Source of the DNA: a virus
Lineage: Duplodnaviria; Caudoviricetes
Direction: 5' to 3' (one strand)
DNA length: 27,173 nt
Virus record (IMG/VR): IMGVR_UViG_3300037506_000029
Span: 1 to 27,173 of that record
The notes under the pieces were generated by a model. The model made no database searches. It was not told where the DNA came from and saw nothing but the letters and a program-made list of their open reading frames with translations. The position numbers and the translations under genes were made by a program. Positions within the stretch are counted from its first letter, which is position 1; the number at the start of each line of letters is the position of its first letter. Below, piece after piece: positions 757 through 26,815 of the stretch.

Positions 757-1170
757 TTATAAGCAGGCTAAGGAAATTCGCTCCAGCTTCCATTCTCGCA
801 CGTCGTAATTAGTCCACAAGACTTCACATCGCTTGTCCTTCGTGGAGTGGATGGTACGGGGCGGACTCTTGTGCTTCCGCCATTTCGGAGCCGGATAGGG
901 TCGGTCTAACAGCTCGCAATCATAATTAGATAGAGCTACCATTCCCTTTACGGAACTCAAAACCTTTGATACCTGCTCATGCTGCTCATTGGTCATTTCA
1001 TGCTTGTAAGCCTTGGAGTCTCCCTTTGTCTCATGAACGTATGGTGGATCACAGTAGAACAAGGTTTTAGGCGAATCGTAGAGCCGGATAACGTCAATCG
1101 CTGGCCTGTTATCAATCTGGACTCGCAGCAACCTTTCTGCAATGTCTGGCAGCATATCGACGGAACCGAA
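757..1170 (-). pseudogene. 5'-truncated Dam/D12-class adenine methyltransferase (C-terminal part only)
   Basis: LPDIAERLLRVQIDNRPAIDVIRLYDS..LFYCDPPY...ALSNY...EVLWTNY matches the D12 MTase C-terminus. The N-terminal SAM-binding motifs are absent; the ORF start at 1257 runs through a pentamer tract instead. Confidence 0.8.
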
Positions 1171-1171
1171 T

Positions 1172-1262
1172 GAGTAACGTCGTACAGATCCACGCATTGC
1201 CTGACACTGCATGGCAGTGCCAGACAAGGATAAGATCCACAGTATCGCGAATGCCAACAGAA
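1172..1262 (-). ncRNA. 5-nt periodic tract C (candidate guide RNA, degenerate/truncated)
   Basis: 1226->1172 reads TGTCT GGCAC TGCCA TGCAG TGTCA GGCAA TGCGT GGATC TGTAC GACGT TACTC. The register is lost upstream of 1226. It lies just after the RAMP-like stop codon. RNA status is inferred. Confidence 0.5.
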
Positions 1263-1263
1263 T

Positions 1264-1916
1264 CTACTCCCACAAGATCACTTCAAACTTCCCATAGGAA
1301 GGCCGGTTGGTTCCAAACCCAACAGCAATCCCACCCTATGTAAAGACGTTCAGAAGCTGCTGCTCCTGGAGAGTCTTGTTTGGCCACAGGATCATCCGGA
1401 ACTCCAGTTCCCACGGCATGGGGAGAACAGGACGAACTTTGGGGTTGGGGATGCCCTTTTCCAAACTAGCCGTGCTCCGATCAATATATACTCCGCTCAA
1501 CCATCTCACCACGAAGTTTCCCAAATCGGATCGGCTCCCCCCTCCCTGGTGAAGATAATATACCTGGGCTCAATCGTAACGAAGGAAGCACAGGCAAAAC
1601 AAAAGGACTTGTACTTACGACTGTCCAGAATCCTTTTTGGTGCAGAATCGGTATTTTGCGCCGAGAGGAACGACACTATGTTCGCTGCCGGCAACACCAG
1701 CGTCTCGCCATCGTCCGGCAGGAAATACAACTTCTGCCACGCTTCCAATTTTGTGTCGTTGTCCCCCGGATACCTGTCGAACATGATCGGGGCCAGACCA
1801 CGAACTTTTATTCTGCGGCATATCTTCTCCCTAGTTCCCTGTTCGGTCCTAGTAAGAGGACCAACACCATTGCCGCTGCTTCCAACCTTCGGTTCCTAAG
1901 TTTTAGTTTTTGCCAC
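1264..1916 (-). pseudogene. Stand-alone RAMP/Cas7-like (Vipr-like) protein, about 215 aa, disrupted
   Basis: AAGGAAGG RBS and GTG start at 1916. The reconstructed protein has IKVRGLAPIMF, LVLPAANIVSFL, RPVLPMPWELEF and a C-terminal Gly-loop GGIAVGFGTNRPSYGKFEV. In-frame TAGs occur at 1896-1898 and 1336-1338, with frameshifts at about 1540 (G6 run) and about 1503. Confidence 0.7.
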
Positions 1917-1949
1917 AAACGACCTTCCTTTCAGTTTAGAATAAAGCCA

Positions 1950-2039
1950 CAAACTGGCCCTACCGGGCACTGCCGAGCGGCATCTTGTATCGCAGCAACT
2001 GGCACATCCCCGAAAGGCACGGTCTTTCCTAGCAGAGCC
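1950..2039 (-). ncRNA. 5-nt periodic tract A, 18 units (candidate guide RNA)
   Basis: GGCTC TGCTA GGAAA GACCG TGCCT TTCGG GGATG TGCCA GTTGC TGCGA TACAA GATGC CGCTC GGCAG TGCCC GGTAG GGCCA GTTTG; intergenic between sbcD and the RAMP-like gene. Confidence 0.6.
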
Positions 2040-2056
2040 CGGGCAGGTAAAACAAA

Positions 2057-3040
2057 TTAGCCTTTCTTATTCTCAACCTCTTCCTTTACCTGAACGATTA
2101 GATCCTTTACCTCCTTCCTTTCTATCTCTGTTATTCTTCTGTTCAGTATTTCCCAGAAATCTACTGGCCTGTCTGTAAGAGACATCAGATCCTCCACAAA
2201 CTGATGCTGCCCGTCCTCATCAGGAATAATAATCTCGGATTCAAGGAAAATATCCCCTCTTTTTGGAATTTCGTGTCGAAAAACAGATCCATCCACACGA
2301 ATCATTCCTATCCAACATTGCCTGTTAGTCTCGTCCATCTTTCTGCGAAGAAACCCGCCACAGTTGAGGACAGTAGTTCCATTCACATTTTCCATAAATC
2401 CATCGTGATTGTCTCCAAAAATAGCCACGTCGTACCCGAACAGACGACTTCTCCACTCTTGAACATGCTCACTCTTTGGAGCACCAACGTAGGAGGATCC
2501 TCGATCTTTCCAGATGTAAGAATGGATCACAGCTACGTTTGTGCAGATATCCCTTCCAGAATAGGGAGTTACTTCTATCCCCCAAGGGAACCCATGCAAT
2601 CGAAGGAAGCCAATGTCCACCGGATTCCCAGGTTCCAAGTTTGTGATCTTTCCTGCCTGAACCAACGTCCAGTAGGCAGATTTCTTTCTGTCCTCGTAAC
2701 GATGGTACGGAAGATCGTGCTGTCCAGGAACAGCGTACATGTGTGGTAGGTGGGATAGTGCCCAGTTAATCACCTCCGGAGGAGAATTCCATCTGTCAAA
2801 AATATCTCCAGCGCAGATTACTGGAACCTTGTGCATCTCTGTCAGGTAGCAAAGTTCACTGGTATGCTTCTGCATTGCCAGATACCAGTCCGGCTCGCCA
2901 CTGCGAGCGGCTGGAGGAGTATGGCTCAGGTGCAAGTCTGACACTGCAATGGCTGCAATGTTCCGCACAGGGGACACTGCTTCTTCAGGATTTTTTCTAG
3001 ATCCTTTTTTGCTTCGGAATAATCGTCCTTCGTCTGGCAC
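2057..3040 (-). CDS. SbcD/Mre11-like metallophosphoesterase nuclease
   Basis: Motifs SDLHL, AGDIFD, PGQHD, IHSY, GDNH; GGAGG RBS before GTG 3040 (alternative start 2968); adjacent to an SbcC-like gene. Confidence 0.9.
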   Translation of the reverse strand: MPDEGRLFRSKKGSRKNPEEAVSPVRNIAAIAVSDLHLSHTPPAARSGEPDWYLAMQKHTSELCYLTEMHKVPVICAGDIFDRWNSPPEVINWALSHLPHMYAVPGQHDLPYHRYEDRKKSAYWTLVQAGKITNLEPGNPVDIGFLRLHGFPWGIEVTPYSGRDICTNVAVIHSYIWKDRGSSYVGAPKSEHVQEWRSRLFGYDVAIFGDNHDGFMENVNGTTVLNCGGFLRRKMDETNRQCWIGMIRVDGSVFRHEIPKRGDIFLESEIIIPDEDGQHQFVEDLMSLTDRPVDFWEILNRRITEIERKEVKDLIVQVKEEVENKKG

Positions 3041-3840
3041 AAAGATTCCTCCAAAGAAGTTAGCTCTTTTAGCAGTTGCTGTAATCTTTCCTTGCTGCTA
3101 TTGATAGCATCTATCTTGCTTTTGATCTTTTCTATTTCTCGGAATCTGGATAGGAAAGGAATTGATTCCCTGTAAACCTCTCGAAGACAATCCAGTTCCA
3201 GAAGTATATTGTTTAAACGATCTCTCTTCCTTCTGGAACTTTCTGTCCTACCGGACAGGCCTTCTATTTCTTTCAGTTCTTTGTCTGCTTCCCCTACCCA
3301 CTCCAGGTCCTTTGCCCTTTTCTTTGCCTCCTCTAGCCTAGACTTACAGGAGGATTCTTCTACTTTGAATGATCTTATCTTGCCAGCAATACAGAATAGG
3401 GCGCCATCAATTGTGTTTAGATTGACTATGGAATTTAGTTCCTTGCTAATTTCTCCAGGAGAAAGAAGGAACCAGAAAGGATAGTCATGTTGAAGTTGCC
3501 AGTTGATGGCATCTACATTAAGAATGGATCGGAATTCATCCGGGACAGAAGTTCCAAGTGCCTTGAATATTCTGCCATCAAGTTTGCATAGGTTGGATTC
3601 CCTCCCCCTAGAACGCTGGAGGAAACTACCATCCACTTGCAAATGAACAAAGCAAGATTCGGAACCCCGTCTAATATAGGAAGATCCGGAGGGACGATTC
3701 GTTGCCAACCATTTGATAGCTCGAAGAATGGAGGATTTGCCAGAGTCTGTCCTTCCAATGATAGAAGTGATATGCTGATCAAATTCAATTTCTATTCGAT
3801 TATGACACTGAAAATTTTCCAGGAATAGTTTTTCAATCAT
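2926..3840 (-). CDS. SbcC/Rad50-like ATPase, N-terminal half only
   Basis: LENFQCH, Walker A GRTDSGKS, Q-loop-like LQHD, coiled coil and terminal CPLCG zinc hook; no signature or Walker B motif. Confidence 0.85.
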   Translation of the reverse strand: MIEKLFLENFQCHNRIEIEFDQHITSIIGRTDSGKSSILRAIKWLATNRPSGSSYIRRGSESCFVHLQVDGSFLQRSRGRESNLCKLDGRIFKALGTSVPDEFRSILNVDAINWQLQHDYPFWFLLSPGEISKELNSIVNLNTIDGALFCIAGKIRSFKVEESSCKSRLEEAKKRAKDLEWVGEADKELKEIEGLSGRTESSRRKRDRLNNILLELDCLREVYRESIPFLSRFREIEKIKSKIDAINSSKERLQQLLKELTSLEESLCQTKDDYSEAKKDLEKILKKQCPLCGTLQPLQCQTCT

Positions 3841-4051
3841 CGCCGCCGCCGGGATTCTTTTCGTAAACCCCGCCTGCTACCTTTTCTGGAGGGGAGTCAA
3901 CTTCAATAATTTTATCTATTAGTTGATCCGATAGTTTCTTGCAGATCTTGTACTCGGTACTGTTCCACGACATGGTTCGCATTCTAAACTGTATTGCAGA
4001 TAGCAATACATTCAGGGAAACACGATCAACTTCAATCGTAATGTTGTTCAT
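3833..4051 (-). CDS. Hypothetical protein, 72 aa
   Basis: MNNITIEVDR...; overlaps the SbcC start. The start was chosen at the TAATG overlap at 4051 (ORF open from 4084). Confidence 0.6.
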   Translation of the reverse strand: MNNITIEVDRVSLNVLLSAIQFRMRTMSWNSTEYKICKKLSDQLIDKIIEVDSPPEKVAGGVYEKNPGGGDD

Positions 4052-4200
4052 TAAATTACTTTGCTGGTATTTACTTTGTAACATCTATGGCAAGCAAGGG
4101 ATCTGCCACAAATGTATTGTCTTCATGAATGACATGTGGAGTAGTAGTGTGACACCCATGTTATTCTAAAAGACATAATAATCCAATATGGAAGTCTCAT
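4051..4200 (-). pseudogene. MKLP-family short ORF with internal TGA
   Basis: MRLPYWIIMSFRITWVSHYYSTCHS*RQYICGRSLACHRCYKVNTSKVI*; the final TAA overlaps the next ATG. Confidence 0.45.
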
Positions 4201-4284
4201 AAAAGAAGGCGGTTGCCACACCTCCCCAAGGATAGGAACTTCTCTTGCCAGATACACCGTGGTTAGAGTAAATGGTAATAGAAA

Positions 4285-4899
4285 TTAGGAGAGCGACGAC
4301 CCCTCGCTGTTCTCCTCAACCACCTTTTTCTCCACAGAACCGCCTGCCCACAACTTTACTGCATGAGGACTAACTGTAGAAAAGAACTCTTTCAATTCCA
4401 TCCCACCAATATATCCACAAGGAGGATATGCGATAATAATTGCAGGACTGATCTTACAATCCTTCTTGATGAGATCTACCACTTCCCTAGGGAAAAACAC
4501 CAGCGGTGTTCTGGTGTTTCTTTTCGTTACTAACAACCAGTGACTTATGCCAGCATCCTCTTTGTTCTTGATCAGTTTATCCACCCATATTTGATATAGA
4601 GGATTTCTCTTGTGAGCCCTTTCGGATATATCCACCAGATCAATGATGGACTGATTAGAGTACCCATGCTTTAGTTCCACCACAAATAGATTTGTGAATG
4701 GAACTCCGTCTGGGTCTATGGCAGTTATGTCCCCATACTGTCCAGAAGTTCTCCTATTCTTCTTGGATCTAACAGTTGCCCTCGCACCAGATCCTGCCGT
4801 TCTCCAGAATATATCGTCCCTCTCTCCATTCGTCCACCACTGAGACAGACGGGTACAAAACCACCTTTCAAATGCTGGGCCTTTTCTAGCGGCAGACAT
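4285..4899 (-). CDS. Holliday junction resolvase-like PD-(D/E)XK nuclease
   Basis: KGPAFER...RTAGSGA...GDI...VELK pattern; located next to recA. Confidence 0.8.
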   Translation of the reverse strand: MSAARKGPAFERWFCTRLSQWWTNGERDDIFWRTAGSGARATVRSKKNRRTSGQYGDITAIDPDGVPFTNLFVVELKHGYSNQSIIDLVDISERAHKRNPLYQIWVDKLIKNKEDAGISHWLLVTKRNTRTPLVFFPREVVDLIKKDCKISPAIIIAYPPCGYIGGMELKEFFSTVSPHAVKLWAGGSVEKKVVEENSEGSSLS

Positions 4900-4900
4900 A

Positions 4901-5953
4901 TCAACTGTACCTTGGCTTGCGAAAGACCTTGCAGGCTTCCTCTATTCTCTTCCATACCACTTGCACCAAGGAAAACAATTCCTGTTCATTGTCGTTGCTT
5001 TCTATGAAGTCAATCAGATCCTCCTGATTATCAAACATTCCAAAATCTCCAGCGTTGATCTTCCTTCCTTCCTTTTTCCACTCTCCCTCTTCTATCAGGA
5101 AGTCTACACAAGATCCTGTATTATCAAACCCCAAAGAAGGATAGAACGGAACGCACACCGAGGGCTCCCAGCCTGTCTGTCTGTTCTTCCTCACCTGGAT
5201 TTGTAATACAGATCCAATCTTGTGCGACCTTCCATTAACTTCCTTCTTGATAGTCTCTCGAATGCTAAACCACGCCTCTTCGGCAGCAAAGAACTTTAGC
5301 GCCCTTCCCCCAGCCCTTGTTTTCTTTTCTCCAAATGGAACAGCATCTAACCTGTCTATGGTCTGACAAATGATCATGAGGATGCTTCCAGTATCCTCCA
5401 GTTCCCTCATCGTTCTTCGAAGTCCCTGCTTGATCTGCTTAGCCTTCTCTGCTCCATAAGAAGCGGGGACTTTCTTTCCCTTTTCCCTGGCAGCCTTTTG
5501 CCTCTCGTACAGTTCCTGATCTGCTGCACAGTCCAGAGCATCAGAACTATCTAGCACCCTGATAAATGGACTCTTCCCCTTCAGATCGTCATACATCCCA
5601 TCGAAAAATTCCTCGACATTTGACGAGTGGTTAACCTCTATTCTCGTTGATAGTTTTCCAAAAAACTTCTCCATATCCATCAAGGCCCCGCCCTCCACGT
5701 CATCGTAGATCAGGCGGTATTCGTCATACTGTTTGTTGTACGCCGCCTCTGCCATAGTGGACAGGGACAGGAAAGTCTTGCCGCTGGCGGAATCTCCTAC
5801 CAGAAGATAGTATTTTCCAGGAAGAATTCCATGGTCAATCTGGCCAGAAAAGGCCAGATTGACCATGGAGCACCCCGTACTCAATCCTGATGGGGTATCT
5901 CTCTCCTTGGCTTTCCTTTGTCCCTTGAGAGTTTTCTTGATCTCATCAATCAT
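4901..5953 (-). CDS. recA: RecA/UvsX-like recombinase
   Basis: LSTG, Walker A GDSASGKT, DVEG, VLDS, GGRALKFFA, VRKNR. Confidence 0.9.
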   Translation of the reverse strand: MIDEIKKTLKGQRKAKERDTPSGLSTGCSMVNLAFSGQIDHGILPGKYYLLVGDSASGKTFLSLSTMAEAAYNKQYDEYRLIYDDVEGGALMDMEKFFGKLSTRIEVNHSSNVEEFFDGMYDDLKGKSPFIRVLDSSDALDCAADQELYERQKAAREKGKKVPASYGAEKAKQIKQGLRRTMRELEDTGSILMIICQTIDRLDAVPFGEKKTRAGGRALKFFAAEEAWFSIRETIKKEVNGRSHKIGSVLQIQVRKNRQTGWEPSVCVPFYPSLGFDNTGSCVDFLIEEGEWKKEGRKINAGDFGMFDNQEDLIDFIESNDNEQELFSLVQVVWKRIEEACKVFRKPRYS

Positions 5954-5959
5954 AAAAGC

Positions 5960-6049
5960 AAACCTTGACTAGCAGAGCATTGCAATGCCCGACCACGCAG
6001 AGCAAAGTCCATCAGTAACTCGCAGCGCCAAGCATAGCAGTGCTTCCCA
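5960..6049 (-). ncRNA. 5-nt periodic tract B, 18 units (candidate guide RNA)
   Basis: TGGGA AGCAC TGCTA TGCTT GGCGC TGCGA GTTAC TGATG GACTT TGCTC TGCGT GGTCG GGCAT TGCAA TGCTC TGCTA GTCAA GGTTT; fills the SSB-recA intergenic gap. Confidence 0.65.
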
Positions 6050-6052
6050 AAA

Positions 6053-7237
6053 CTATCCTCGCTTCTTTTTCTTCACAGGAAGATCCTCCTCTTCTTTTTC
6101 TTCAGGCTCATCCTCCCACAAGTCATTATCCTCTCTCCAACCATCCCCATCATCTTCCTCTGGATCTTCCCTGGTCTTCTTGGAAGAAGAAACCTTCTGC
6201 ACATCGGCAGGAGCAACCCCACGACTCCGAGAATCGTCATCAATTCCTGCCAAGGTAAGGGAGGTTCCATCCCCAGAGATGGCCATGATCATGTATTCCT
6301 TACCGTCATACTTGACCTTCTGACCAACTTCCAGATCAAGATCCTCTGCTGTTGGACCAGCAGATTCCTTCTTATCCTCAACTTCTGATCGTCTCGTAGC
6401 ACCAACAGATCCCGATGGGATCTTTGCAGAATGGGTACTCCGGATCTCTTCTCTGTGCCCAACCCCGTTTTCTGACGACTGTCCGTTGTCAATCGCCAAA
6501 GGCTCCTGCAAAAAAATCCTCTTGAGTTCATCATAGGAATACTCGACAAGACAATTATCCAAACACACCGCATCCTCGACAATATCAAAATCGTATTGCC
6601 GGTCCCGCTCATCGAATTCAAGGGCAGTCACACGATTGTACTTACCTCCTGGATACTTGTCTTCCTCCACCTTGATCACAATGGTCAATCCCCTCTCAGG
6701 ATCATGGAAGTCATCAAACTTCTTGGACATCTGAAGTTTGTCCTTCAGCATCTTGCCGAAGGAAGGGTATTTCACAGACCCAAAGGTGGTATCTAGTACT
6801 TGGATACCCTTCTTCTTTTCTGTCTCATCCGACACATCGATCACATTAAACAGGTGCCTCTGCTGTGGACGCAGCCCGTCCAGTAATTGCCTGTCAGCAG
6901 TTCCACCGTTCTTCTTGACCCAATCGAAGATCGGATCTGGCTTCCCAAAGGTATCTCTCAGCGATACATACCTCTGGTTCTTGCCGTTAGGCATAGGGAT
7001 CTTGTAGCACCAGTACGTTCTCTCGAAGTGCAAGAACCCCTCATCAGCACACGGATTCCCTCTGCCAACGTAGTAAGGGATCACATCCAACCGCATAATC
7101 CCAGATCTAAGTTGGAGGAAGGTCTTTCCTTCCGGCAGTTTAATGCTGGTGGGCTCGTAAACTCTCTCCTGTTGATCCGCCCACGCTCTGCCAGAAGTTC
7201 TGCGAGTCTGCGCCTCTGCCTTTCGCTTCTCAACCAT
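6053..7237 (-). CDS. gp32-like single-stranded DNA-binding protein
   Basis: LDVIPY, KPDPI, RHLFNVID, FHDPERGLTIVI resemble the gp32-like core; acidic tail; position between UvsY-like and RecA. Confidence 0.7.
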   Translation of the reverse strand: MVEKRKAEAQTRRTSGRAWADQQERVYEPTSIKLPEGKTFLQLRSGIMRLDVIPYYVGRGNPCADEGFLHFERTYWCYKIPMPNGKNQRYVSLRDTFGKPDPIFDWVKKNGGTADRQLLDGLRPQQRHLFNVIDVSDETEKKKGIQVLDTTFGSVKYPSFGKMLKDKLQMSKKFDDFHDPERGLTIVIKVEEDKYPGGKYNRVTALEFDERDRQYDFDIVEDAVCLDNCLVEYSYDELKRIFLQEPLAIDNGQSSENGVGHREEIRSTHSAKIPSGSVGATRRSEVEDKKESAGPTAEDLDLEVGQKVKYDGKEYMIMAISGDGTSLTLAGIDDDSRSRGVAPADVQKVSSSKKTREDPEEDDGDGWREDNDLWEDEPEEKEEEDLPVKKKKRG

Positions 7238-7239
7238 AA

Positions 7240-7716
7240 CTACTTACCTCCCTTTGATTTGAATGCATTACGGGCTTCAACATCAAACATCTTCTTCCCT
7301 GCTTCTCCAGAGACTCGGGGCTCAGCATAGTAATCAGCAAGCCACAGCTGCACCAGATTCTCCAAAGTCCGCTTCCTGTCATCGATAGCGTCCAGGTATG
7401 CCTGAATCACATCAACATTATGCTTGGCAACCAGAGAGGCTTCCACTGCCTTCTGATACTCAGGCTGCACCAGAACAGTAGCCTTTACAGCCCCTTCTGT
7501 TACCTTTTCCAGATCAAAATGAGATGGATTTTTGCGGATCGAAAGCTCGATTTCGGCTTCGACCACATTAAGATTTGCCTTGGCCCGATCATGTTCCTTC
7601 CGTGCTTCTGCCAGTTTTTCTCCCCACTCTCTGCGAAGCCTTGGCTGAAGCAACCACTCCTCGTCCAGTCGGTGCCTGTCCAAATCAAATACTTCATTTT
7701 GCATAGAAGACTGCAT
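7240..7716 (-). CDS. UvsY-like recombination mediator (helical)
   Basis: Coiled coil with LDEEWLLQP...KVTEGAVKATV...DAIDDRKRTLENLV; synteny with SSB and RecA. Confidence 0.6.
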   Translation of the reverse strand: MQSSMQNEVFDLDRHRLDEEWLLQPRLRREWGEKLAEARKEHDRAKANLNVVEAEIELSIRKNPSHFDLEKVTEGAVKATVLVQPEYQKAVEASLVAKHNVDVIQAYLDAIDDRKRTLENLVQLWLADYYAEPRVSGEAGKKMFDVEARNAFKSKGGK

Positions 7717-9422: not shown

Positions 9423-10856
9423 TTATCCCTCTGTCCACTCCCCATTCTTTTCCACATATTGTTTCTTCTCGTACCAGCTAGACTCCGCAACCTCCGCTTC
9501 TATCTCTAGTGGAGTAATGATCCAGGACCACTGCTTAGGAAGCCAGACAGTCATAACCTCCCTAGCAATATTCAGATAGTCTCCTACTTCCTCTACAGGA
9601 CTGTCTGCAAGGATACTGTCATGGATCTGTCCAACCAAGCAGGTTTGCATCTTGCTGTCCCTGATCCTTTTTCTGACCTCGACCAGACTTTTTAGAAGGC
9701 AGTGGAAGGCTGACCCTTGTACAGGATGGTTGATCACATCGTTTCTGGAGAACACTCCCTCTTCTGTGAACCCAGTCAAAGAAGTAAACCTCCCCATCTT
9801 TCGATATTGTTCCACCCAATCATTTTTCCACTGCTGATACACTTTGAACCTGCGTCCCCAGAAATCTTCTTCCACAGATTTTATGTGGGCTGCATAGGAA
9901 TTCCTTTCAGGAATTGCTCCCGGAGCACACAATCCAAGTTTAGTAATTCCCTTGCTGACAAGATGTTGCTTGATTGTCTTCCCTTCTGGACCCACCAATC
10001 TCATCCCGTCGCAGGCAGACCACAAGGCAGGAGCACACTGAAACCAAGCCGATCCATAAAATTGTGGGAACACAAAATTACTCTTCCCACAATACCTAAG
10101 TTGTTTGGCATTGGCCTTATCGAGACTGTTCCATTCTTCCGTGTTCAGAGCATAGCACTCCATCGCCATATCTCTGTGCATATCTTTGGAAGGATCATTG
10201 ATATACTCTAACATCGCCGGGTCTTTGTGATAGCAAGCAGCGATTCTAACCTCAATACCAGAGAAGTCAACCTCTACCAAACACCTACCCTTTCTGGGGA
10301 TGAAGGCTCTGCGAATCAACTTCCCCATATGAGGATCTCGTATAGGTAAATTCTGGAAGTTCGGAGAGTCCGAGCTGGAACGAAAAGTCCTGGTGGTGTG
10401 CAAGTTAAAGAATGGGTGTATGTAACCATCTACCACTTCCCTACGAATTCCTTCCAGAAAGGTGTTCTTTGCCTTCTTTACTCTTTGAAGAAAAGCAAAC
10501 TTCTTTGCAAAAGGAATATTGGTTTTATCCAACGTACTCTCATCAGATTTGTATCTGCCTGTTGAAGTAAGGAACTCCTCTCCTTCTGGAAATGGAAGAC
10601 GCAAGACTCCAAACAATATCTCTGTTAACTGCTGCCTGCTATCGAGATTAGTCCTTTGTCCAAATTTTCTTTTCCATACACCATAGATCTCATCTTCCTG
10701 TAGTTTGTGTGTAAGGAACTCAATCCTATTCCCTGTTCTGTGGATAGCAGCATCCAAGTAAGGAACGTCTATTCGTATGCCGTTGGACTCCATTTCTGCA
10801 AAAGCAATAGATCCTTCGTGGAAAAGTTGGTAGGCGTCTTTTGTGGAAAGACTCAT
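9423..10856 (-). CDS. polA: Family A DNA polymerase, polymerase domain only
   Basis: SSDSPNFQNLP, motif A DFSGIEVR, motif B RYCGKSNFVFPQFYG, NHPVQG, motif C QIHDS; begins at the EMESNGIRID region and has no exonuclease domain. Confidence 0.95.
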   Translation of the reverse strand: MSLSTKDAYQLFHEGSIAFAEMESNGIRIDVPYLDAAIHRTGNRIEFLTHKLQEDEIYGVWKRKFGQRTNLDSRQQLTEILFGVLRLPFPEGEEFLTSTGRYKSDESTLDKTNIPFAKKFAFLQRVKKAKNTFLEGIRREVVDGYIHPFFNLHTTRTFRSSSDSPNFQNLPIRDPHMGKLIRRAFIPRKGRCLVEVDFSGIEVRIAACYHKDPAMLEYINDPSKDMHRDMAMECYALNTEEWNSLDKANAKQLRYCGKSNFVFPQFYGSAWFQCAPALWSACDGMRLVGPEGKTIKQHLVSKGITKLGLCAPGAIPERNSYAAHIKSVEEDFWGRRFKVYQQWKNDWVEQYRKMGRFTSLTGFTEEGVFSRNDVINHPVQGSAFHCLLKSLVEVRKRIRDSKMQTCLVGQIHDSILADSPVEEVGDYLNIAREVMTVWLPKQWSWIITPLEIEAEVAESSWYEKKQYVEKNGEWTEG

Positions 10857-11197
10857 CGGTTATCTCCACTGCCCCTGAGAACCCCCCGGTTTTTCCTGTC
10901 TTGCAGTTTATCCAGATTATTAAGAGCAATCTCGCTCATGGAACAATCAATCTCCCGGCAAAGAGCCGCCATGTACCACAAAGCATCTCCAATCTCCTTC
11001 GCCAATTCCTTGCGAAACTCACTGTACATGGACTTGTAATCAGTAACATCCTTACGAAGAACCTTCTTTATCTTGTTGACAATCTCTCCAGTTTCTCCAG
11101 CCAAACCAAGAGCAGCATAAGCCAATCCGACAGCCTCCCCTGAATTAGGATACACAGAAGTTTCCTCAGACAGTCTGACATACTGATCGAACGTCAT
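10853..11197 (-). CDS. MazG-like nucleotide pyrophosphohydrolase
   Basis: LGLAGETGE...KEIGDALWY...NLDKL..R..RG.L.GSGDNR. Confidence 0.9.
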   Translation of the reverse strand: MTFDQYVRLSEETSVYPNSGEAVGLAYAALGLAGETGEIVNKIKKVLRKDVTDYKSMYSEFRKELAKEIGDALWYMAALCREIDCSMSEIALNNLDKLQDRKNRGVLRGSGDNR

Positions 11198-11352
11198 ACT
11201 ATACTCCTAATGCAAGCTGTAACAAAACTTTACAATACAGAAGCTAGAGACCGATATAGCACCGCCCCTTTCCTATATTCTGCTACTGTACTTGTAACGC
11301 ACCCACAACATTGCAACAGCATCTTTTGATGGTCCTCTGGTACACCATGATA

Positions 11353-11799
11353 TTACTTTATTATCCGAAATGATTTTTCTCTTATCCACTTTGTTCCACC
11401 AAAGAGTGGACTCAATACTAACCAGAATGGAATTTTCATGATCAATTGCCCACTGACACTGCCCTCGCCCACATCCATATTATTGACTATGATCTCGTAA
11501 ATGAGTCTGATCTAGATTTCGATTCTCTGGACTCTATACGATGTTGATTTTAGTCCTAGGATCCACAATGGAAGTTTCATTATTTATCTATAAAACCCAG
11601 ATCCAGACTTCGACCAGATACTAGACCACGACCATGCCTACGGGCCTGATCTAGATCCAGATACTGAGTATGGCCAATACTCTGATTTTGAAAATCTCTT
11701 GTGTCTCACCCCCTCCCTCAACGCTTCAACCCTGCTCTTCGATGCCAATCCTTCCCTTAACTACATACGAGACAAGAGAAAGCAATAATGAATTTTCAT
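11353..11799 (-). pseudogene. Three tandem degenerate MKLP-family short ORFs
   Basis: Starts at 11799 (MKIHY..., two in-frame TAGs, ends SGSRSGP*AWSWSSIWSKSGSGFYR at 11584), 11580 (MKLPLWILGL, frameshifted) and 11439 (MKIPFWLVL, 28 aa). Confidence 0.5.
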
Positions 11800-25921: not shown

Positions 25922-26815
25922 TTACTTGGGCACAACGGTGTGCCCATCCGTCTTGGTGTCTTTCAAGTCGGCCCCTGTCAGGTTGGCCCCTTCCAGGTTA
26001 GTCCATCTCAGGTCGGCCCCTGTCAGGTCGGCCCCTGCCAGGTGGGCTCCTCTCAGGTCGGTCCCTCCCAGGTCGGCCCCTGCCAGGTTGGCCCCTCTCA
26101 GGTCGGCCTCTCTCAGGTTGGCCCCTCTCAGGTCGGTCCCTTCCAGGTCGGCCCCTGTCAGGTCGGTCCCTTCCAGGTTGGCCCCTTTCAGGTCGACCCC
26201 TGTCAGGTCGGCCCCTCTCAGGTTGGCTCCTTCCAGGCAGGCTCCTTCCATGTTAGTCCATCTCAGGTCGACCCCTCTCAGGTCAGCTTGACACAAGTTG
26301 GCCCCTCTCAGGTCGGCCTCTCTCAGGTTGGCCCCTCTCAGGCTAGTCCATCTCAGGCCAGCACTTTCCAGGATAGCCCTTTCTAGGTCAGCTCCTCTCA
26401 GGTCAGCCCCTCTCAGGTCAGCTTGACACAAGGAAGCCTGCGACAGGTCGGCCCCTTCCAAGTTGGCCCAACTGATGTTGGCTTCGGGATCGAAGCTCCT
26501 TTCGCTTGCTGCCAGGAAAGCCCTGATCCTGGCATCCTTGCCGGCAAGATCATGGTCCTTGGTAATCTCCTGATCCAAGCGGATCGATGAAGATACTGCC
26601 TTGTTCCCCTCTTCATCGATCACATCCTTGGTTGAGATTAAGAACAGTTTTGATCCCGGCATCCACCACTGGAGGGGACTGGTGGTGGAATGGTAGCCAT
26701 TCTTGCAGAGTTTGGCATTGTTGATCTCAGGAGTCCATTCCCCCAGAGGAGGGTAAGTATAATCCCCTCCGTGGCAGGATTTGTGATCAACTAGCACTTT
26801 GAATCGGTAATTCAT
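25922..26815 (-). CDS. Pentapeptide-repeat protein with an N-terminal globular domain
   Basis: More than 30 A(D/N)LxG repeats (15-bp DNA period, about 25960-26480); N-terminal SCHGG...GEW...LCKNGYH; AGGAGG RBS. Confidence 0.92.
   Translation of the reverse strand: MNYRFKVLVDHKSCHGGDYTYPPLGEWTPEINNAKLCKNGYHSTTSPLQWWMPGSKLFLISTKDVIDEEGNKAVSSSIRLDQEITKDHDLAGKDARIRAFLAASERSFDPEANISWANLEGADLSQASLCQADLRGADLRGADLERAILESAGLRWTSLRGANLREADLRGANLCQADLRGVDLRWTNMEGACLEGANLRGADLTGVDLKGANLEGTDLTGADLEGTDLRGANLREADLRGANLAGADLGGTDLRGAHLAGADLTGADLRWTNLEGANLTGADLKDTKTDGHTVVPK

Follow-up and report, generated by a model that had tools for sequence, protein, structure and literature searches.

A TGC-rich pentamer tract between SSB and recA of a phage is probably a dispersed, now orphan VIPR guide RNA

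Why would the gap between two genes of a phage replication operon be filled by a regular five-base repeat? We analyzed a 27,173-nt stretch of DNA (hereafter the window) from a Caudoviricetes virus record that is 32% complete and contains phage replication genes (IMGVR_UViG_3300037506_000029). On its minus strand, a tract of 18 five-base units (5960–6049; tract C), each made of a fixed triplet and two variable bases (NN), occupies the gap between genes for a single-stranded DNA-binding protein (SSB) and RecA. An earlier note on this DNA regarded the tract as either a dispersed guide unit acting in trans or a protein-bound element that governs translation of recA. VIPR, which silences DNA under RNA guidance and is related to CRISPR, consists of the Vipr protein and a guide RNA (vrRNA) and was described in 2026 (10.64898/2026.04.26.720920). 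We consider it likely, on sequence evidence, that tract C is a TGC-rich vrRNA unit of this system, standing apart from vipr in the SSB–recA gap of the replication operon.

The tract and its place in the window

Read on the minus strand, units 1–9 of tract C are TGGGA AGCAC TGCTA TGCTT GGCGC TGCGA GTTAC TGATG GACTT, and units 10–18 are TGCTC TGCGT GGTCG GGCAT TGCAA TGCTC TGCTA GTCAA GGTTT. The 18 triplets listed in the earlier note match the reverse complement of these positions exactly, and the register is held through all units. The triplet begins as KGY in 12 of the 18 units, with G at position 2 in 15/18 and a pyrimidine at position 3 in 16/18. Canonical GGY is found in only three units (16 of the 54 triplet positions deviate from it), such that the period of five with alternating triplet and NN corresponds to a related consensus rather than to GGY itself, as predicted for a vrRNA in the broad sense. 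Across 100 order-2 Markov simulations of 27 kb, scanned on both strands and in any phase, the best run of 18 units contained 5–8 KGY units; the motif was the choice of the earlier note, hence post hoc, but tract C exceeds the simulations by a wide margin despite this. The window DNA may come from run X1, whose contigs are identical to it over 1000–7300.

Upstream of tract C lies the gp32-like SSB gene (6053–7237, minus strand), whose match to Pfam PF08804 is weak (E = 7e-4, under the curated cut-off) and which has no close relative in IMG/VR. Its stop codon TAG is followed by three nucleotides (TTT) and then by the tract. Downstream, a GCTTTT spacer (5954–5959, minus strand) leads to the ATG of the RecA/UvsX-like recombinase gene (4901–5953, minus strand), which confirms the 6 nt previously reported between tract end and start codon. 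The accompanying statement that no Shine-Dalgarno sequence is visible there needs a small correction: a weak AAGG is present 9 nt upstream of the ATG, within units 17–18. Pairing of this site with an anti-Shine-Dalgarno 10-mer was estimated at −3.8 kcal/mol, and the sites of 5 of 23 other starts were weaker, indicating that poor Shine-Dalgarno sites are not unusual in the window. We found no promoter-like site upstream of tract C on the minus strand and no structured 3′ tail (fold z of −0.05 relative to shuffles, with the recA ATG 6 nt downstream). Separately, about 90 nt downstream of the tract, the recA coding sequence contains in its 5′ part a perfect inverted repeat (5828–5869) with arms of 18 bp and a loop of 6 nt.

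Scanning the window for further KGY tracts, a check proposed in the earlier note, yielded two, both flanking the RAMP-like gene described below, and among non-coding runs the grammar of tract C recurred only there. Tract A (1172–1226, minus strand) comprises about 11 clean units downstream of that gene and runs into a DNA methyltransferase fragment; tract B (1945–2034, minus strand) consists of degenerate pentamers upstream of the gene, past the stop of a metallophosphoesterase gene. Both present register slips. Two resemblances that had been drawn between tracts A and C were retained in part: their lengths are equal only loosely, tract A having some 11 units in clean register, and the stop codon followed by a T-run was observed before tract C but not before tract A, which has no real T-run. 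We also observed that tract A folds into a 14-bp hairpin (z = −2.8) and that the DNA adenine methyltransferase fragment it abuts (757–1180) matches only the latter part of family models, suggesting a deletion or insertion junction. The remaining matches of the scan were all in coding DNA, mostly in a gene near 26 kb with a 15-nt period (25922–26815; pentapeptide-repeat-like), a coding repeat unrelated to tract C. The same applies to a frame with a 6-nt period at the contig start (11–309; Gly/Val or Ser/Arg repeats). Finally, a high-GC open frame among low-GC phage genes (23318–24052) looks, by eye, like an IS transposase fragment.

The position directly before recA, together with one minus-strand frame that lacks stops over most of tract C, could be taken to indicate a cis element of recA independent of Vipr, a coding remnant, or a chance run. 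However, the recA frame has a TAG six codons upstream of its ATG, a period of five is not a codon period, and the simulations reached 8 KGY units at most. Tract C also had no Rfam match, no DNA among 50,697 phage records resembled it better than E = 0.6, and its grammar reappears in the window solely beside vipr. These explanations are already largely refuted, and we regard any of them as very improbable.

A broken Vipr gene and the tracts of its relatives

The RAMP-like gene (1262–1916, minus strand; a purine-rich site precedes the probable GTG start at 1916) was measured at about 4.1 kb from tract C, in line with the 4 kb given earlier. It is broken, which the earlier note had missed. Two frameshifts near 1500–1550 take the reading through all three frames and a TAG at 1336–1338, ahead of the G-loop, is a certain stop; another TAG at codon 7 is a probable lesion, since homology reaches upstream to the probable GTG start. 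Hence, no intact vipr adjoins tract C, and the broken gene is the only copy in the 27-kb window, that is, in a record 32% complete. We considered TAG recoding as a rescue of the gene and rejected it: many window genes do end in TAG, and the frameshifts persist.

Despite these lesions, the affiliation of the gene can be recognized. Its N-terminal piece matched 40 proteins, the nearest of which is about 70% identical. A profile built from 22 intact homologs matched the window at 1539–1784 (E = 6e-41) and 1267–1506 (E = 9e-37), and its sole PDB match at E ≤ 1 was the Vipr of SUSP1 (36pp_D; E = 3e-6), spanning the thumb and the G-loop. The AlphaFold model of one homolog (P0008; pLDDT 94) matched chains of type III CRISPR complexes (Csm/Cmr; best E = 2.7e-5). 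Taken together, the profile match, the type III fold and the pieces in the window identify the RAMP-like gene as Vipr (10.64898/2026.04.26.720920), and a RAMP of this family with RRM, thumb and G-loop is encoded, as judged from the intact homologs and the profile match to the pieces. The window gene retains 29 of 30 invariant residues (22/23 columns computed and seven G-loop columns by eye), a figure somewhat inflated by the choice of homologs for their likeness to it; an R to S change affects one column invariant among the 22 intact homologs. This retention suggests that the gene probably died recently.

We then analyzed the surroundings of related vipr genes, using the best 80 of 152 IMG/VR relatives. 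A pentamer tract with at least 8/12 KGY units was present in 79 of the 80 loci, and in 76 under a rule of 7/10 units on the same strand. Across 187 distinct same-strand tracts from these loci and five more (3,548 units; median of 16), the triplets were GGC (83%), GGT (5.6%) and TGC (3.8%, a figure that counts the 23 units of one antisense artefact), followed by GGA, GTC, AGC and GAC. Uncontrolled counts on mechanically defined ORFs placed the tract start at most 20 nt past a stop in 80/186 tracts and the tract end at most 40 nt from a start in 86/186 (at most 12 nt in 29/186). The sequence CAAGG closed 144/186 tracts at the 3′ end; the longer CAAGGT[TA] did so in 27/186 and stood at the 5′ end in one. 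Tract C has the same anatomy: it follows a stop, lies near a start and ends in CAAGGTT, its units 17–18 corresponding to the 3′ end signature of the clade.

Tract C resembles the published VIPR systems (10.64898/2026.04.26.720920) in that the phage carries a small RAMP homologous to SUSP1 Vipr and intergenic five-base repeats of triplet and NN flanking vipr. In that work VIPR is sorted into types I–VII by Vipr phylogeny and vap gene, and repeats with internal degeneracy and the consensuses NNNGG, YNNNG and NNNNG are described (10.64898/2026.04.26.720920). The locus differs from them in its broken vipr, with no vap gene identified, and in that tract C is dominated by TGC, counts 18 units compared with the 9–16 stated there, and sits 4.1 kb from vipr in a replication operon without a structured 3′ tail. 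With GGY in 3 of 18 units, tract C has neither the canonical spelling nor the ~40-nt structured 3′ tail of type II/SUSP1-like vrRNAs.

Two further preprints bear on this comparison. One describes solo or orphan vrRNAs of VIPR-null phages and satellites, proposed to borrow Vipr in trans (10.64898/2026.10.15.759431), and tract C, a predicted guide whose local vipr does not work, would have to borrow Vipr in the same manner. Those vrRNAs remain at the clean vipr-vap1 deletion site of SUSP1-like enterobacterial phages and keep GGY, whereas in the window vipr persists as a pseudogene and tract C occupies a separate site; it also differs from what is described there in lacking a match to the vipr genes of relatives (NN search, 162 loci). 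The other reports non-canonical VIPR-like arrays (WGT/NN, TGH/NN, GAC/NN and CAC/NN; 21 clusters; 10.64898/2026.10.21.760802). As in those arrays, TG-initial units accompany a Vipr-like fold here, but tract C mixes G and T at position 1 within a clade otherwise 83% GGC. Our literature search found no 2026 paper on vrRNA plus TGC, and no guides dispersed into replication-operon gaps in the accessible portions of the VIPR preprints, whose supplements or data files may cover them.

Dispersed tracts and the recA neighborhood

Six of the 80 homolog loci, two of them from the same phage, contained flagged tracts at distances above 2 kb from vipr. The loci L017, L019 and L159, which seem to stem from a single phage, have an SSB–recA pair like that of the window and tract copies 3.3 and 8.8 kb from vipr. 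Dispersal of predicted guides is a habit of the Vipr clade to which the window belongs. The dispersed tracts of this phage (L017, 6886–6955 and 10900–10969; L019, 1066–1155) stand behind a common AT-rich leader, which is absent at tract C. The copy 3.3 kb downstream is a near-exact repeat of the vipr-proximal guide, suggesting that whole putative guide units were copied. We also noted L150, a 90% complete record that shares the replication genes of the window. Its DNA polymerase and clamp-loader-like genes are separated by a GGT-rich tract of some 30 units (6555–6701), and the record yielded no Vipr of the window's family. This suggests a second candidate orphan in another gap of the replication operon.

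If tract C served recA, it should recur before related recA genes. We compared 83 recA loci (the best 80 of at least 391 confirmed relatives, plus three), in 66 of which an SSB stop lies within 600 nt of recA. None of the 83 presented a tract-like run (at least 6/10 KGY units) in the 400 nt upstream of recA, and the two loci that bear vipr, L016 and L159, were no exception. The comparison of SSB–recA gaps, which the earlier note had proposed, thereby leaves its protein-bound element without support as a conserved feature, and on these sequences a conserved recA element is excluded for tract C. The RecA relatives are distant phages, only 40–48% identical to the window RecA, and either gain or loss of a tract may account for the difference at this gap.

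Vipr bound to the SSB–recA mRNA may have an effect specific to this lineage. By masking the ribosome-binding site of recA, a Vipr filament on the uncut transcript would adjust RecA translation in cis, which would fit a tract that spans the gap, contains the sole AAGG and has no promoter-like site of its own, as well as the 29 tracts of relatives ending within 12 nt of a possible start in the uncontrolled ORF count. Yet the missing tract before all 83 related recA genes and the death of the local Vipr speak against this reading; in the clade, tracts commonly stop close to the gene that follows, and the neighboring genes vary. We judge such an operator improbable. The broader idea, in which guide units move on their own into replication-operon gaps and a Vipr filament there becomes a translational operator over the ribosome-binding site of the following gene, here recA, is equally doubtful. 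If true, VIPR would also regulate at the RNA level, as a second mode in which the KGY grammar is relaxed.

TGC spelling, targets and present activity

Considering again tract C as a probable guide, its most unusual property is the spelling of its triplets. TG-initial units make up 10 of the 18 units of tract C and 22 of the 47 units of tracts A–C, compared with about 4% in relatives. Where position 1 was not G in these three tracts, it was T in 25 of 27 units (p = 2e-10 relative to equal odds). TG-initial units are too many and too one-sided for decay. The six non-KGY triplets of tract C fit the set tolerated in the family better than random triplets (p = 0.0015), although their advantage over one-step mutants was not clear (p = 0.09). 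By rough arithmetic, neutral change of a few percent since the death of vipr would yield 1–4 departures from GGY compared with the 16/54 observed, which suggests that the TGC spelling is older than the decay of vipr. A similar loose spelling exists in a relative with an intact Vipr of 205 aa (L037), whose tracts are up to 40% TG-initial. The TGC-rich spelling thus looks native. In L037, about seven loose tracts (TGC, GGA and TGA units; 10580–11375) follow the intact Vipr, mostly split by a repeated AT-rich spacer in an array-like manner.

One protein feature was considered as an explanation of the TGC units and gained no support. The G-loop of the window vipr reads GTNRP in place of GT[FWY]RG, a variant that we found at no locus in IMG/VR and at one in metagenomes (L163). 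In L163, the closest relative by G-loop whose gene is intact, the tract is of the canonical GGC kind; TGC spelling was consequently not seen next to a close intact Vipr, and in this comparison with a single locus outside the window no protein change accounts for the spelling. In SUSP1 VIPR, AGY, GAY and GGA are reported among the GGY changes that abolish silencing, and TGY is not listed (10.64898/2026.04.26.720920).

We searched for DNA matching the NN code of tract C. In the window and 162 loci (2.19 Mb, skips of 0–2), the best match was 23/36 compared with 22–24 for shuffled guides; the best self-match within the window was 21/36, not above chance, and the codes of tracts A and B likewise gave no target in the window and the 162 loci. 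Exact matches to 11 units in metagenome contigs and to 9 units in IMG/VR numbered zero. Seeds of seven units gave 117 loci in IMG/VR (89 distinct sites; best 9/18 further bases) and, in a second search of 45/64 parts of IMG/VR, at least 120 loci (104 distinct sites; best 8/18), both at chance level. A related vipr occurs in a Pirellulales MAG (G001), whose phylum may not be that of the phage host; 401 genomes from this phylum gave no match to 14 units with at most three mismatches. As a control, 106 canonical guides of relatives showed no skip-1 excess over shuffles in the local set either, and these blank searches therefore say little.

The earlier proposal of a dispersed guide in trans is accordingly upheld in part. 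The identity as a guide is favored by the Vipr-family partner, the tracts beside homologs, the dispersed tracts of relatives and the CAAGGTT end; activity in trans would need Vipr from elsewhere, the local gene being broken, and no target match was found. Tract C is probably a dispersed, now orphan vrRNA. Its counterpart is a dead relic, a former guide neither expressed nor bound and decaying along with vipr. The two readings have a common origin and differ only in present activity. Decay would be consistent with a vipr that carries one or two TAG stops besides its two frameshifts, the register slips of tracts A and B, the empty target searches and the lack of a promoter or tail. It is at odds with a register and 3′ signature still intact over 18 units, a T bias unlike random decay and a vipr that looks recently dead; moreover, another vipr may exist, given a contig that is 32% complete. 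A dead relic is thus unlikely in our view, though the least so of the alternatives.

How would such a guide work? With no promoter-like site upstream, its RNA would derive from the SSB–recA operon transcript and would then be released or bound in place. Going by the published VIPR structures, each Vipr subunit would hold one triplet and present NN, DNA being read two bases on and one off (10.64898/2026.04.26.720927). By extension of published VIPR work, one subunit would clamp each triplet of tract C and the NN pairs would read double-stranded DNA, passing over every third base; about 16 units would be informative, the last two forming the end signature. By blocking transcription, the guide may shut down a gene in a rival phage or satellite. 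Because the local vipr is dead and the contig incomplete, such activity would require Vipr borrowed in trans, supplied either by a co-infecting phage or by another copy within the unassembled part of the genome, roughly two thirds of it; otherwise tract C would be a recent relic.

As a probable guide, tract C shows that VIPR guides can lie distant from vipr, outlast the decay of the gene and carry TGC for GGC in about half of their units. Orphan guides and TG-initial repeats already appear in 2026 preprints, which makes the gain incremental. If an intact Vipr of this clade accepts TGC units, guide design rules would be looser than GGY, and searches restricted to GGY next to vipr would miss guides.
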